The notes beneath the pieces are model-generated. The model was not told the DNA's origin and ran no database searches. It worked only from the letters and a program-made list of their open reading frames with translations. The translations under genes and the position numbers were made by a program. From an uncultured Hyphomicrobiales bacterium (GTDB lineage: Bacteria; Bacteroidota; Ignavibacteria; Kapaibacteriales; UBA2268): a stretch of 64,000 bases of DNA. The stretch covers positions 16,702 through 80,701 of the forward strand of contig CAYXMM010000011.1 of assembly GCA_964465945.1 (NCBI GenBank), given 5' to 3'. Position 1 is the first letter of the stretch; each line of letters starts with the position of its first letter. Of the stretch, positions 2,806 through 38,796 are shown piece by piece.

Positions 2806-3785
2806 TGCCAGAATTAATGGAATTGATTGAATTTTTAGATGAAAATGGGGATACTATAGTAAAAAGGATTCCTGAAAAAGGTAGTGGTGAATTTAAATTT
2901 GGTTCTCAACTAATAGTTCGAGAAAGTCAAAATGCTATCTTCTTTCGAGATGGAAAATGTTTAGATGTGTTTCCACCAGGAAGACATGTTCTAAGAACTC
3001 AGAATTTACCTTTAATAACAAAATTTGTAACTTCATTAGGATATGGTGAGAATAGTCCTTTTAAATCTGAAGTTTATTTTATTAATTTAAAATTATTTAG
3101 AAATTTAAAATGGGGTACAAAGGAACCAATATTATTTAGAGATGATGAATTTAAAATGGTTAGATTAAGAGGCTTTGGACTATTTTCTATTACAATAATT
3201 GAACCTACATTGTTTTTAAATAAAATAGTTGGAACTCAAAATACTTTTAAAGAATCAGATATTCTTGGTTATTTAAAATCAATAGTTATTCACAAATTAC
3301 AGATTGTTTTATCAAAGTCTTTTAAAGCTGTATTAGATTTACCAAGTAATCTTGATAAAATAAGTTTATTATTAAAAAAAGAAGTATTACTTGATTTTGA
3401 CTCACTTGGAATTGAGTTAAATGATTTTAATATTATATCATTATCGCTTCCTCCTGAAGTCCAAAAAATTATAGATACAAAAACTGGTATGACTGCAGTT
3501 GGTAATTTAGATGATTTTATGAAATTTCAATTAGGAAAATCTATTTTAAATTTATCTGAAAATAAAAGCGATAGTTTTGAAAATAGTTTTGCTTCTGGTT
3601 CAGGTATTGGAATGGGGATGCTAATACCTAACTTTTTAAATCAATCAGTTAAAAATAATACAGAAGACAAAGAAGAAGATATATATAGTAAATTAACTAA
3701 ATTGAAAGAGTTATTCGATAAAGGTATTATAAATGAAGAAGAATATACAAATAGTAAAAGAAAAATTTTAGATAATATAAAATAA
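2805..3785 (+). CDS. SPFH/Band-7-like (Band_7_1 family) protein with a C-terminal SHOCT domain and no transmembrane segment
   Basis: The N-terminal block EFLDENGDTIVKRIPEKGSGEFKFGSQLIVRESQNAIFFRDGK...PGRH.L.T.NLPLITK...SPFKSEVYFINLK matches the TM-less SPFH family that includes B. subtilis YdjI-like proteins; this is from memory. The C-terminal KLKELFDKGIINEEEYTNSKRKIL is a SHOCT motif. Confidence 0.65.
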   Translation: MPELMELIEFLDENGDTIVKRIPEKGSGEFKFGSQLIVRESQNAIFFRDGKCLDVFPPGRHVLRTQNLPLITKFVTSLGYGENSPFKSEVYFINLKLFRNLKWGTKEPILFRDDEFKMVRLRGFGLFSITIIEPTLFLNKIVGTQNTFKESDILGYLKSIVIHKLQIVLSKSFKAVLDLPSNLDKISLLLKKEVLLDFDSLGIELNDFNIISLSLPPEVQKIIDTKTGMTAVGNLDDFMKFQLGKSILNLSENKSDSFENSFASGSGIGMGMLIPNFLNQSVKNNTEDKEEDIYSKLTKLKELFDKGIINEEEYTNSKRKILDNIK

Positions 3786-3799
3786 ATAAACGAATTTAT

Positions 3800-4930
3800 A
3801 TGAATTGTCCAAATTGTGGTAGTGAAATCGAAGATGAAATCTATACTAAATCAATAGAATGCGAATATTGTGGTTCTACCATTAATTTTAACGATATAGA
3901 TTTAGATTCAGAAAAAATTAAATTCCAAAAAAATATAAATGAAATCTCAAGTTTAATTAATTTGGATAATATTAAACTAGCTACAAAAAAATTAAATTTA
4001 ATGTTTGAATCTTATTCGGATAATTACAAAGTTTGGGAATTATGTGGAAGATTTGAATTTATTAAGATTATAAATAAACTTAATAAAACTCCTAAGGATA
4101 ATAATGGTAGAGATGACAGCGTCCTTAAAATTGATATAATAAAGTCTTTTGAAAAGTCATTTAGTAAATCTCTTGAATTAGTTAATGAGAATAATAAAAT
4201 TGAAATAATAAATTCGTTAGATAATTGTCTTAATGATTGCACAGATGCTCTTATAAAATCAAAAGATATTATGTTTTATTATGGATTAACTGAAAATCAA
4301 TATTATGCAGATAGGAGGCTAGAACATTGGTATATTTTGATTGAACAATTAATTGAACTTAAATATTTAATATCACAATATTTCAATTCTATTGACTTTG
4401 TTAGAAGTGTTAAAATACTAATAAAAAAATATTGTTTTAGAAATTTTATAGATGGTATATATATCCATAATTACGTAATAGTAGATAAATTAGATAGATA
4501 TGGACATCGTGATAGGAATGAAGCAATTGAATTTTTTTGGTTTGTTCCTTTAAATGATAAATATTTAAAATGGTACAAAAACTTATATAATGAATATAAA
4601 ATTGAATTAGAAGAAGAAGAAAATCAAAAATTTAATATGAAAAGTGAAGCATCGCTATCTAGTAATGAAAGTAAATGTTTTATTGTAACTGCAACTCTGG
4701 ATAATCCAAATCACTTAATAATTAAGGAGTTGCAGTTTTTTAGGGATGAAATATTATTAAAAAATAACATTGGAGTATTTGCAATTAGATTATATTACAA
4801 ATTTGGTCCAATTATGGCAAATTTTATTTCTAAATCTGAATTGCTGAAGTTTTTATCATTACACATAATTGTATTACCAATTCATAAAATCGTGAAAATT
4901 ATATTTAAGAGGCTTTATAATGGATACTAA
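3800..4930 (+). CDS. Double zinc-ribbon protein with a central helical region and a conserved hydrophobic C-terminal anchor-like module
   Basis: The N terminus reads CPNCGSEIEDEIYTKSIECEYCGS, two CxxC pairs. The C terminus reads CFIVTATLDNPNHLIIKELQFFRDEILLKNNIGVFAIRLYYKFGPIMANFI followed by the hydrophobic stretch LKFLSLHIIVLPIHKIVKIIF. I recall this CF[IV]xTA...FRD...YY..P motif as a recurrent C-terminal module, but cannot name the family with certainty. Confidence 0.55.
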   Translation: MNCPNCGSEIEDEIYTKSIECEYCGSTINFNDIDLDSEKIKFQKNINEISSLINLDNIKLATKKLNLMFESYSDNYKVWELCGRFEFIKIINKLNKTPKDNNGRDDSVLKIDIIKSFEKSFSKSLELVNENNKIEIINSLDNCLNDCTDALIKSKDIMFYYGLTENQYYADRRLEHWYILIEQLIELKYLISQYFNSIDFVRSVKILIKKYCFRNFIDGIYIHNYVIVDKLDRYGHRDRNEAIEFFWFVPLNDKYLKWYKNLYNEYKIELEEEENQKFNMKSEASLSSNESKCFIVTATLDNPNHLIIKELQFFRDEILLKNNIGVFAIRLYYKFGPIMANFISKSELLKFLSLHIIVLPIHKIVKIIFKRLYNGY

Positions 4931-32472: not shown

Positions 32473-33210
32473 TTATCGAACGAGTTCCCACTCTTTTGAA
32501 TAAGATTTTCCAGTAAACATCACAGCAATACCATTTAAAAACCATTTTAAAATTGTGTTAAAATACCCTTTCTGTCTAAATCGACGTGGAGATTCTAAAA
32601 CAATTATATCATTAGCAAAAGTAACTTTTTCAGTTTTTGCAATTCGTCTAAATAAGTCAAAGTCTTCACCAGCAGCAATATTTGGGTTGTACCCCCCTAC
32701 TTTATTGAAGTTTTCTTTATATAAAATCTGACACTCACCACGTCCCATTCCTAAGCCAATTACATTTAGTAATTTAAAGTAAGAATTAAAGAAAGCATAG
32801 AAACATAAATCTTTGAATCCTTTGTCTTCAGGGAATGGCTCAACTTTACCAGCAAGAGCGCTTGATTTTGAATAAATTTTACCTTTACCAAAATCAGCAA
32901 TTTTTCTTAAAAAAACTTCTGTATTCTTTGGCATAGTGTCAGCATTAATAAAAACTAATACGTTTCCATTTGCTTGCTCGGCACCAAGGTTCCGCCCTTC
33001 ACCAATAGTCTGCCTTTCGCCAGTCAAATTATTCACCACCTTAACATCAAAACTTTTAAGAATATTCAGAGTATCGTCAAAAGAGCCACCATCAGAGATG
33101 ATAATCTCGAAATTAAATTGTCCCTTAAATTTCAAAAGTTCGCTGAGGAGTCCTCCGATTAATTTTTCTTCATTATAAGCTGGAATAATAATACTAAAAT
33201 CGAACTGCAA
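32473..33210 (-). CDS. Glycosyltransferase family 2
   Basis: The IIIPAYNEE motif and a DxD-type fold pattern are present. Confidence 0.7.
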   Translation of the reverse strand: MQFDFSIIIPAYNEEKLIGGLLSELLKFKGQFNFEIIISDGGSFDDTLNILKSFDVKVVNNLTGERQTIGEGRNLGAEQANGNVLVFINADTMPKNTEVFLRKIADFGKGKIYSKSSALAGKVEPFPEDKGFKDLCFYAFFNSYFKLLNVIGLGMGRGECQILYKENFNKVGGYNPNIAAGEDFDLFRRIAKTEKVTFANDIIVLESPRRFRQKGYFNTILKWFLNGIAVMFTGKSYSKEWELVR

Positions 33211-33237
33211 ATTAATTTTCTTTTTGTTAAATTAGAA

Positions 33238-33264
33238 TTTCAAATATAAGGAATTTTTAAAAGT
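33238..33264. repeat. 27-bp perfect direct repeat, left copy (TTTCAAATATAAGGAATTTTTAAAAGT)
   Basis: An identical 27-mer recurs at 34282-34308. Together the two copies bracket a cassette of about 1 kb. Confidence 0.85.
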
Positions 33265-33327
33265 GATGTGTGAAAATTGAAATTGAAATTATAAATGAGA
33301 GATAATTGAACAATTTAATTGTGCTAA

Positions 33328-33597
33328 TTATTTATTTTTAACTTTGTATTCTACAACCCAAGCGATCATACTTTCAATAATATCTTTAAATATTAAAGCA
33401 TTTATATCATTTGGGTTATACTTCTCACTTTCTAAGCTAGTTACATAATCAAGAGTAAATTCATTGTATGCAAACCAAATTTCTTTGTATTTTGGAATAT
33501 TTTCTATATTTATTTTAAACCAGTCCCTAATTATTTTAATTATTTCTTCAGATTCATTTCTATGTGCTTTAATATTATTACCTGAGATATCGGACAT
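33328..33597 (-). CDS. Hypothetical small protein
   Basis: It is an 89-aa ORF lying inside the direct-repeat-bounded cassette. Confidence 0.35.
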   Translation of the reverse strand: MSDISGNNIKAHRNESEEIIKIIRDWFKINIENIPKYKEIWFAYNEFTLDYVTSLESEKYNPNDINALIFKDIIESMIAWVVEYKVKNK

Positions 33598-33663
33598 TAC
33601 TTTTTGATATCTATAAGGTTCTTTATCTAATATTAAAATTTGTTTTGAAGAGTAGATTGAGTT

Positions 33664-33939
33664 TTAAAATTTTAAACTAAAATCAATACCACACTCAAAA
33701 GGCATATTGAATCTTGGCAAACCATTTTGTAAGGTTTCCATCCTCGAAATATCATGAATAGAATACAACGACTTCATCATTAAATCTTTTATTCTATGTA
33801 AACGTACTTCACCTGAGTTTGCCGTTTCAGAAATTTGAGGTGATAAGTCTAAGTAAATTATTGTAAAAAGTATAGATTTTAAAAGTGGAAAATATTCATT
33901 ATCAAAAGGGCAATTAATAAACACATTCTTTAAATTCAT
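33664..33939 (-). CDS. Hypothetical small protein
   Basis: It is a 91-aa ORF (MNLKNVFINCPFDNEYF...HDISR...PRFNMPFECGI). No family was recognised. Confidence 0.35.
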   Translation of the reverse strand: MNLKNVFINCPFDNEYFPLLKSILFTIIYLDLSPQISETANSGEVRLHRIKDLMMKSLYSIHDISRMETLQNGLPRFNMPFECGIDFSLKF

Positions 33940-33950
33940 TTATTTGCCTT

Positions 33951-34190
33951 CTAATTTTCTAAGATTGAACCATCTTTTTTATGGATTATTATTTTCTTTG
34001 AAGTTTTTACTCTATTTACACTTTCAATAGCTTCTTCCAATGTGTTCGCTAATGAATATACTTTTTTGGTACCTTCTTTTTTTATCGCCCATTTACTTCA
34101 AGTAGGTATGATATGTATATTGCCACTTTTTGTTGAAGCAGCTAATTTCAACCTACTTTTTAGCTTAGTAATATCTTTTGTTGGTGGCAT
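33951..34190 (-). pseudogene. DUF2188-family small protein gene interrupted by an in-frame TGA
   Basis: The reverse-strand translation is MPPTKDITKLKSRLKLAASTKSGNIHIIPT*SKWAIKKEGTKKVYSLANTLEEAIESVNRVKTSKKIIIHKKDGSILEN. The second part matches the DUF2188 pattern (HVVP.G.GWAVK.EG...S.....EAI..A.......L.IH..DG.I). The stop codon, TCA on the plus strand at 34098-34100, falls exactly where the family has a conserved Gly. Confidence 0.6.
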
Positions 34191-34281
34191 TATAATCCTT
34201 GATAAAATTAAAATTCCATGAAATTAATTTAAAATATTTTAAATTTTTCATATATCTAAACGAAAAATTAAAAAAGTTACT

Positions 34282-34308
34282 TTTCAAATATAAGGAATTT
34301 TTAAAAGT
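34282..34308. repeat. 27-bp perfect direct repeat, right copy
   Basis: It is identical to 33238-33264. Confidence 0.85.
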
Positions 34309-34397
34309 TAATAGAATATTAAAAATGATTGTTTTTCATTTGGGAATCAAAGACTGCTAAAAGAATGTCAGGAATGTAATTTGTGGAAAATTTAAAA

Positions 34398-34438
34398 TAA
34401 AGGGTTGAATCTTAATTTAAACTAAATTCAACCCTTTA
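34398..34438. terminator. Hairpin terminator downstream of the merR-family gene
   Basis: The sequence AAAGGGTTGAAT-cttaatttaaactaa-ATTCAACCCTTT forms the hairpin. Confidence 0.55.
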
Positions 34439-34442
34439 TTTG

Positions 34443-35195
34443 CTATAAGTTATTCTCTACATAGTAGTTCATTGCTTCTTTTAAGAATTTTCCCATTTCA
34501 GGATATTCAATGCCGTTGATTGTAGTGAATCGATTATCTTCAATGTATAGGTCTGCTAATCCGAGATACTGCTCTTTTTCTATGTCTTCAATTTCAACAC
34601 CCCAAAAAAGTGAAATTAAATGGAAATGTTGGTTGATTAAAACTTGGACTTCATTTGAATCTGTGGGAAGTTTAGTGCTTTCAGCAAGTTCTTGCCATAA
34701 TTCTTTAAATTCTTGATTTAATTCATCAAAGTCTATTTTGTCCATCTTAATTAAATTATTTTCAGATTGATGGACTTTATCGCCCCATCGAGATATTGCT
34801 TCTTCTCTTAATTCTTTTGATTCAGGGAAGCCCGCATATAATTCTTCAATTTTCATAGAGATACCTTTATTTAGTTTTACAATAGTTTTTTCAAGAGTAA
34901 CAAGGATATTTTTAAACATTTTTTGCTTTTTTAACAAATTTACTTTTTGAACTTCTAAGGACTTAACTAAATCGAAATCTGATTTATCTAGAATTTTTTT
35001 GATTTCGTTTAAGTTATAGTCGAGGGCTTTATAGAATAAAATTTGTTGTAGGCGTAAAGTGTCATCTTCGTTATATAAGCGATAGCCTGATTCTAAGATT
35101 TCACTTGGAAGTAATAGTTCAATTTCTTCATAGTATCGCAAAGTTCGGATACTAACTCCGCTTTTCTTAGCAAGGACACCAATTTTCACTAACAT
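34443..35195 (-). CDS. MerR-family transcriptional regulator with a TipAS-like C-terminal domain
   Basis: The N-terminal segment KIGVLAKKSGVSIRTLRYYEEIELL is a MerR helix-turn-helix. Confidence 0.75.
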   Translation of the reverse strand: MLVKIGVLAKKSGVSIRTLRYYEEIELLLPSEILESGYRLYNEDDTLRLQQILFYKALDYNLNEIKKILDKSDFDLVKSLEVQKVNLLKKQKMFKNILVTLEKTIVKLNKGISMKIEELYAGFPESKELREEAISRWGDKVHQSENNLIKMDKIDFDELNQEFKELWQELAESTKLPTDSNEVQVLINQHFHLISLFWGVEIEDIEKEQYLGLADLYIEDNRFTTINGIEYPEMGKFLKEAMNYYVENNL

Positions 35196-38650: not shown

Positions 38651-38723
38651 TTAGTATATCTGTATTTTTTCTGAATTATGTATAAAAAAATCCTAACTTT
38701 GTTCTAAGTTAGGATTTTTTTTG

Positions 38724-38796
38724 TGGTCAAGGAGGGAATTGAACCCCCGACACAAGGATTTTCAGTCCTTTGCTCTACCAACTGAGCTACTTGACC
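38724..38796 (-). tRNA. tRNA-Phe (anticodon GAA)
   Basis: The reverse complement folds as a cloverleaf: acceptor stem GGTCAAG/CTTGACC, D stem GCTC/GAGC, anticodon stem AAGGA/TCCTT with loop CTGAAAA, and T stem GGGGG/CCCTC. There is no encoded CCA. Confidence 0.85.

Follow-up and report, generated by a model that had tools for sequence, protein, structure and literature searches.

The attL and attR sites of prophages, of integrative and conjugative or mobilisable elements, and of integrase-less cis-mobilisable elements are exact repeats of a few tens of base pairs around an acquired intergenic segment. Transposons and insertion sequences (ISs) are flanked by a direct duplication of their target, known duplications being about 2-15 bp long. 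XerCD-dependent elements (IMEX) and pdif modules are small and integrase-less, are flanked by sites of ~28 bp, and are moved by host recombinases, and integron gene cassettes bring in small cargo that has no mobility genes of its own. The locus described here has something in common with each of these. It lies in a stretch of 64,000 nucleotides (the window; contig CAYXMM010000011.1, positions 16,702 to 80,701) from an uncultured bacterium that GTDB places in the Kapaibacteriales, and consists of an apparently acquired islet of ~1.0 kb between two exact copies of a 27-mer. A sequence-only reading of the window had taken the repeats for att-like sites of an excisable cassette or for a duplication produced by an insertion event. 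The analysis favours the second of these. The locus is a genomic islet with flanking direct repeats, which is a known kind of structure, and it gives no sign of being an active or new mobile element. The repeat is predicted to be the promoter of the neighbouring host operon, and the islet is probably a fixed insertion scar, in which a target of promoter length was duplicated, both operons kept a promoter, and homologous recombination later spread the result.

The 27-mer reads TTTCAAATATAAGGAATTTTTAAAAGT on the plus strand and occurs at 33238-33264 and 34282-34308 (plus-strand coordinates are used throughout), exactly as the sequence-only reading had reported. On the minus strand, where all genes of the locus lie, it reads ACTTTTAAAAATTCCTTATATTTGAAA. 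The two copies part company exactly at 27 bp on both sides. The pair is unique in the window: apart from a GC-rich cluster at 970-2190 it is the sole exact direct repeat of at least 20 bp, no third copy with three or fewer mismatches was found there, and 100 dinucleotide shuffles gave 0 matches. It is also no common motif, and was not found in GTDB representative genomes, IMG/VR, or JGI metagenomes. Both copies recur in independent assemblies from other samples (labelled L001, L002, L026, and L032 here), so the repeat is not an assembly artefact. The repeats and the genes next to them are as follows.

32473-33210, minus strand: family 2 glycosyltransferase (GT2) gene, the first gene of the host operon GT2-purM (Pfam PF00535, E 3.7e-17).
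33238-33264, minus strand: proximal 27-mer, the predicted native core of the GT2-purM promoter, with its -7 box at 33248-33241, 38 nt before the TTG start codon.
33328-33939, minus strand: 203-codon gene of an unnamed conserved family, present as two open reading frames (ORFs) in one frame, with TCA changed to TAA at codon 92 (33664-33666).
33951-34190, minus strand: DUF2188 gene of 79 codons (Pfam PF09954, E 7.9e-9; PADLOC PDC-S16, E 1e-8), with GGA changed to TGA at codon 31 (34098-34100).
34282-34308, minus strand: distal 27-mer, a predicted duplicated promoter core of the GT2 type, with its -7 box TATATTTG at 34292-34285, 91 nt upstream of the DUF2188 start codon.

Inside the 27-mer, TATATTTG on the minus strand fits the Bacteroidota sigma-A -7 consensus TAnnTTTG, which is documented for Flavobacterium (PMC9723704) and is similar to the RpoD motif of Chlorobi (10.1101/172254). 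As in other Bacteroidota sigma-A promoters (-33 TTG / -7 TAnnTTTG), the box stands at the expected distance from the gene start, and the motif precedes many operons of the window, where it is found 27-62 nt upstream of ~15 operon-first genes. Unlike in those promoters, no clear -33 TTG was seen 17-23 nt upstream of either copy.

The repeat was identified from relatives that do not have the insert. Five insert-free lineages (L034, L035/37, L038/40, L042/43, and L017) each contain ACTTnnAAAtTTTCCTTATATTTGTA once, at an unchanged distance from the start of GT2. The core of this element, ACTTnnAAAnnTTCCTTATATTTG, is conserved in single copy in all five, ~30 nt upstream of the GT2-purM operon, and the intergenic DNA around it differs. 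Their GT2 proteins are 78-85% identical to that of the window (the GT2 of the nearest genome match is 80% identical), the adjacency of GT2 and purM is kept in all relatives, and the -7 box is conserved across six lineages. The gene upstream of GT2 varies among the five: it encodes a YkuD-like protein, an AraC-family regulator, a SpoIIE-domain protein, or a 1,016-aa ORF, or lies on the opposite strand. Because one conserved copy stands upstream of GT2 in five insert-free lineages, the repeat is read as the GT2 promoter, duplicated, and the 27-mer corresponds almost exactly to the conserved putative promoter footprint of the GT2-purM operon. The comparison shows the proximal copy, with its native leader, to be the presumptive original promoter, and the distal copy to be its exact duplicate. 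The repeats had earlier been placed between the GT2 promoter and the terminator of the MerR gene; the repeat itself appears to be that promoter. The suggestion of a duplication produced by an insertion event agrees with the single core copy of the insert-free lineages.

The exact identity of the two copies is not kept in all strains, since the distal one is polymorphic within the species. In L003, L011, L013, L014, and L015 a plus-strand A>C at 34292 turns the distal TATATTTG into GATATTTG, which breaks the distal -7 box and leaves the repeat at 26/27.

The same insert, with both exact 27-mers, occupies the same site in a sister species, which is represented by L026 and L032; these two share ~99.7% identity. 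Window and sister species are 2.1% diverged inside a low-divergence block and 12.4% diverged outside it. The edges of the block were placed as a maximum-likelihood change-point, with a log-likelihood gain of 70, and identity profiles agree with them. The block and its left flank are made up as follows.

33129-34320, no strand: low-divergence block, with both 27-mers, the insert, and the first ~80 bp of GT2.
34321-34394, minus strand: hyper-divergent spacer after the hairpin, from the identity profile against the sister species.
34395-34441, minus strand: terminator-like hairpin of the MerR/TipAS gene, with perfect 16-nt arms (inverted repeat 100% complementary).
34443-35195, minus strand: MerR/TipAS-family regulator gene, the left host flank (Pfam TipAS, E 5e-22; MerR_1, E 2.6e-15).

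The support interval of the left edge, 34326-34302, takes in the outer edge of the distal repeat, and that of the right edge, 33164-33125, lies inside GT2, 74-113 bp past the proximal repeat. Compared with L032, the flanking genes are 10-12.5% diverged overall and 15-30% at third codon positions, against 1.2% and 2.1% overall, and 1.2% and 2.9% at third codon positions, for the two insert genes. The GC content is 23-28% in the insert and ~28-39% in the flanking genes. The spacer is 73% identical to that of the sister species, with indels, where the neighbouring genes are ~88% identical, and it adjoins a stretch of 40 identical base pairs (34320-34281) at the left edge of the block.

An insert that is 2.1% diverged between flanks that are 12.4% diverged points to recent horizontal exchange. 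As far as sequence comparison can tell, these data show that the insert DNA is foreign and horizontally acquired, and that the islet was exchanged between the two species long after their split. The overrun of the right edge into GT2 indicates that the segment spread by homologous recombination and not by a site-specific route. The earlier claim that the repeats bound an accessory segment is supported by the same contrast, with third positions at 1-3% inside and 15-30% outside.

The content of the insert turned out to be simpler than had been thought. The sequence-only reading had described a DUF2188 gene with an in-frame stop, which is indeed there (TGA, 34098-34100), together with two small orphan ORFs, which are one gene. 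The ORFs of 91 and 89 aa share a frame and are split by the single TAA at 33664-33666, so that, joined, they leave an insert of two genes with one in-frame stop each; the shared frame and the full-length homologues of the joined product rule out a content of three ORFs. The label of orphan also fails, as a search with the joined 203-aa protein returned 7,533 database homologues.

Both stops, G31* in DUF2188 and S92* in the 203-aa gene, are present in all strains of the window species. In the sister species (L026 and L032) DUF2188 is intact with Gly31, and L032 has both insert genes intact (4021-4883). L026, L027, and L028 carry a separate nonsense mutation in the 203-aa gene, AAA>TAA at codon 106 (K106*), which makes three independent nonsense alleles across two species. 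The window copy of the 203-aa protein has also lost the family-invariant residues Gly88 and Asp122. Three knock-outs within ~2% divergence suggest relaxed selection, or selection against an expensive module. Recoding or readthrough of the TGA in DUF2188 is ruled out, as the sister species has GGA there, the stop in the second gene is TAA, and the host genes read normally in table 11.

For short contigs of the window species, public gene calls list a 79-aa DUF2188 protein that spans the TGA (L011 4484-4723, L012 2785-3024, L013 1892-2131, and L014 1992-2231). These calls probably come from an alternative, TGA-sense genetic code used on AT-rich contigs, and would be a database artefact that hides the pseudogene.

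The closest described systems for the cargo are the Thoeris-type pairs of a TIR protein and an effector (Yirmiya et al. 2025 preprint; PADLOC PDC-S16). The module is like them in being a two-gene operon that combines a predicted TIR-like fold with DUF2188, and the neighbours of its homologues resemble defence islands (AbiH, AAA_21/DUF4435, and a restriction endonuclease). It is unlike them in that the 203-aa protein of the window has no Pfam TIR match and a modest fold match, and in that both genes are pseudogenes; the DUF2188 configuration is itself a prediction in that preprint. DUF2188 has been tied to defence operons (10.1101/2022.04.27.489752), and beside TIR genes it is listed as a predicted Thoeris-type effector (10.64898/2025.12.03.692087). 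The window gene scores 36 bits with the Pfam model, against a gathering cutoff of 22, and is also matched by an uncharacterised PHROG.

The 203-aa protein has no match in Pfam, including its TIR models, or in NCBIfam, PADLOC, or PHROG. Its 120 best homologues listed are about 200-223 aa long, 57-66% identical, and cover 93-100% of the query, and ~43 residues are invariant in the family, including NC..D, E38-T39, PRFNMPFECG, RY, SD..GND, and H128. E83, which is invariant within FECG, is a candidate for the catalytic residue. An AlphaFold2 model built from a 120-sequence alignment has a predicted local distance difference test score (pLDDT) of 88.6 and a predicted template modelling score (pTM) of 0.88. 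The best Foldseek match in the PDB is the TIR domain of SPARTA TIR-APAZ (E 5.7e-4, template modelling score 0.51), followed by nucleoside 2-deoxyribosyltransferases (NDTs), DNPH1, and the TIR domains of SARM1 and plants. The model is suggestive of a TIR/NDT-like, flavodoxin-type N-terminal domain with a helical C-terminal part, and makes the protein a candidate enzyme of a DUF2188-linked conflict system.

At the five loci that were read in other Bacteroidota the 203-aa gene follows the order DUF2188, a gap or an 81-aa ORF, and DUF2188 again, with identical spacing, and the neighbours there include AbiH, AAA_21/DUF4435, DUF4357, and TerB. The family is also found on alphaproteobacterial plasmids behind a small upstream ORF, which in one case overlaps its start, and one plasmid copy adjoins a restriction endonuclease. 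No homologue of the 203-aa protein was found in phage genomes, which disfavours a phage origin. Among the matches listed the closest cargo homologues are only ~65% identical, and the 27-mer is absent from the collections searched, so no donor is identified.

In another Bacteroidota genome the homologous module travels in what appear to be integron-type cassettes. One 6.09-Mb contig (ERZ21878363 ctg6995l) holds two 100%-identical module copies of 1,864 bp in different contexts (L023 3196-5059 and L024 3196-5059), and a Saccharicrinis genome holds the module at 94% nucleotide identity over 1,429 bp, ungapped. The unit on the 6.09-Mb contig starts with GTTGGCGGTAATTTT and ends with AAAACTACCGCCAAC, which is followed by ~115 nt and then by ...ACAAGTGACC immediately before GTT. 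The resulting element of ~145 nt recurs between co-oriented ORFs (L023 7480-7620 and 8556-8612) and folds as a long imperfect hairpin (z = -3.4), and each unit opens with bases that are reverse-complementary to the beginning of the 3' element belonging to it. L020 has a compensatory variant of this end pairing (3197-3214 / 4607-4624). By their sequence, the L023 and L024 units thus seem to bear the hallmarks of attC cassettes. The islet of the window resembles integron gene cassettes in its small cargo without mobility genes and in this homologous module. It differs from them in having no attC-like hairpin, no GTT/AAC core pair, no array, and no integron integrase, and in being bounded by direct rather than inverted repeats. 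Nothing attC-like lies between the stop codon of the 203-aa gene and the proximal repeat (33327-33265), and an attC site in the window was rejected for want of supporting features.

A history of the locus can be proposed with fair confidence. An acquired islet of ~1.0 kb would have inserted immediately downstream of the GT2-purM promoter, in an event that duplicated a 27-bp target, perhaps through repair of a staggered break or through a single crossover with a DNA circle that carried the promoter. The duplication would have persisted, with the distal copy serving the islet and the proximal copy serving the purM-containing (purine-biosynthesis) operon, because islet and host operon each retain a promoter. 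The islet would then have spread to the sister species by homologous recombination, one crossover falling on the promoter repeat or close to it and the other within the 5' end of GT2. The repeated inactivation of the module would be accounted for if, as we suppose, it is a conflict or defence system that is costly to its host. What is left today would be a fixed scar with no working excision site.

Several points weigh against this account. We infer both the promoter activity of either copy, from sequence conservation only, and the event that made the duplication. A strict empty site, in the order MerR, spacer, single 27-mer, and GT2, was not found, as the insert-free lineages differ upstream of GT2; the search for an empty site that the sequence-only reading had proposed thus found its single core copy in five lineages and no empty site on the MerR side. 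The left edge of the young block is sharp at the distal repeat, which fits a site-specific junction too. A duplication of 27 bp far exceeds the target-site duplications of transposons, and we know of no enzyme for a staggered-cut insertion here. The defence role of the cargo, finally, is a candidate one, drawn from a modest fold match, gene neighbourhoods, and literature predictions.

The exact direct repeats around a horizontally exchanged accessory segment could also be the attL and attR of an integrase-less cassette, with a recombinase encoded elsewhere in the genome and an att site that copies the host promoter and so spares GT2-purM. This is unlikely, although several observations speak for it. 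The core is identical in both copies (27/27) and single in uninserted relatives (five lineages, each with a different left flank), as with attL/attR elements; the left edge of the young block (34326-34302) touches the distal repeat; in other Bacteroidota the homologous module seems to be an integron-type cassette, of the kind that a recombinase moves; and in some strains (L008) a tyrosine integrase lies ~5 kb from the islet, beyond a SurA-like gene on the side of tRNA-Phe. That integrase is absent from the window. Profile searches of the islet and its neighbouring genes found no integrase or transposase, and the islet holds DUF2188 and the 203-aa gene only. No terminal inverted repeats were found at the islet ends, and inspection of the 27-mer found no dyad symmetry and no pair of inverted arms with a spacer between them. 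On the right, the young block ends (33164-33125) beyond the repeat, inside GT2. The modules in other genomes have no flanking direct repeats, and the 27-mer has no further copy in the window or in the three collections.

A precise empty site or deletion junction would read MerR spacer-27-mer-TTCTAATTTAAC, and a circular or tandem junction ...TTTTCACACATC-27-mer-AGTAACTTTTTT. No empty site was seen in the window species or the sister species, and the islet is in every assembled contig of the cassette region that was read; in a more distant metagenome-assembled genome MerR and GT2 lie in separate places. Set against the attL/attR elements described above, then, the islet lacks an integrase, an excisionase, and a dyad-symmetric core, is only 1 kb long, and shows no excision polymorphism; its site is a promoter and not a tRNA gene or the like, and its spread between species has the footprint of homologous recombination. 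With no integrase, terminal inverted repeats, or dyad, with all contigs that were read occupied, and with the overrun into GT2, the idea of an att-like, excisable cassette is not supported.

Two more specific kinds of mobile DNA were considered and rejected. Against transposon or IS ends stand the absence of terminal inverted repeats and of a transposase and the length of 27 bp, although a direct target duplication around an insertion is what the two have in common. A dif/Xer site has no supporting features either. In dif-like sites two inverted arms of 11 bp enclose a 6-bp spacer. Inspection of the 27-mer shows no such layout: its left arm TTTCAAATAT and the reverse complement of its right arm, ACTTTTAAAA, agree at 3/10 positions. 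In all relatives, moreover, the site is a conserved, gene-linked promoter upstream of one operon.

Homologous recombination could have made the duplication without any dedicated enzyme. In this Campbell-type, RecA-type integration, a circle (an excised cassette or a plasmid fragment) that carried ~27-40 bp of the GT2 promoter would have entered by one crossover, which yields exactly the order promoter, islet, promoter. The later transfer between species apparently crossed over at the promoter repeat, and the 40-bp identical stretch beside a spacer of 73% identity makes short-homology recombination at the promoter plausible. Still, 27 bp is near the lower length limit for RecA-dependent recombination. 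The scheme also needs a prior step that joined the promoter to the islet, and no donor with promoter and islet together was found in GTDB representatives, IMG/VR, or JGI metagenomes. We consider it unlikely.

Each copy stands in promoter position before a gene, and both are retained in two species, as would be expected if the islet genes were old residents and the distal 27-mer came from an in-place duplication or gene conversion of the promoter, selected to drive them, with no insertion at all. This is improbable. The islet is ~6-10 times less diverged than its flanks and is not upstream of GT2 in the five related lineages. Gene conversion requires flanking homology, and there is none beyond the 27 bp. 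The islet genes are dead in the window genome, and so exert no selection for a promoter.

A bolder proposal, to which we give very little credence, is that the 27-mer is a working recombination site, and the module an integrase-less 'promoter-docking' cassette. A replica of a host promoter would be part of the cassette, and a recombinase of the host, or one acting in trans, would insert it just behind that promoter. If this were true, the cassette would capture host transcription without silencing the host operon, and mobile defence cassettes aimed at promoters would form a new class. Last, the repeat could be a match that arose through chance or low complexity between AT-rich intergenic sequences, or one of many genomic instances of a generic regulatory motif. 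The genome has ~30% GC, and looser versions of the motif (78-88% over 25-27 nt) precede queG and rpsD, but these have in common only the generic -7 box region, and the 27/27 identity, the empty shuffles, and the mismatch search leave this with practically no probability.

Read as a fixed insertion scar, the locus is a natural example of a small defence-type module that was gained, shared across a species boundary of ~12% divergence, and then lost to three nonsense mutations. The wider lead is the cargo family (unnamed, ~203 aa, and with >7,500 homologues) and not the repeat. Only if excision junctions turned up would the repeat speak for a new mechanism of mobility. The intact L032 allele (SRR29092740) is a candidate minimal TIR-DUF2188 defence system.

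Read along the minus strand, the whole locus has the order MerR/TipAS gene, hairpin, spacer, distal 27-mer, 91-nt leader, DUF2188, 203-codon gene, 63-nt trailer, proximal 27-mer, GT2 (TTG start at 33210), purM, and queG. The neighbours of the islet are MerR, rpsD, GT2, and purM, with DprA beyond tRNA-Phe. No known RNA element was found in or around the islet; the only matches were sub-threshold ones of miRNA models on the terminator hairpin of the MerR gene.

Two further observations concern other mobile DNA. On the far side of the SurA-like gene, the L008 contig (ERZ781406 NODE_791) carries a 424-aa tyrosine integrase (1045-2319) and a gene for a NERD/UvrD-like helicase. On the corresponding side the window has tRNA-Phe (38723-38796) and then DprA. 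The L008 integrase probably belongs to a strain-specific element at tRNA-Phe that is unrelated to the 27-mer islet.

At 970-2200 the window has another small module that is enclosed by direct repeats. Its repeats are GC-rich blocks of ~220 bp (975-1190 and 1949-2187) that are 87-96% identical, and the motif CCCGTCATTCTGAGGCGAAGCCGAAGAA occurs at four sites, and in two degenerate copies, within the cluster. The blocks flank an overlapping pair of genes, a 75-aa ORF (1363-1590) and a ParE-family toxin (1587-1889; Pfam E 1.8e-9).

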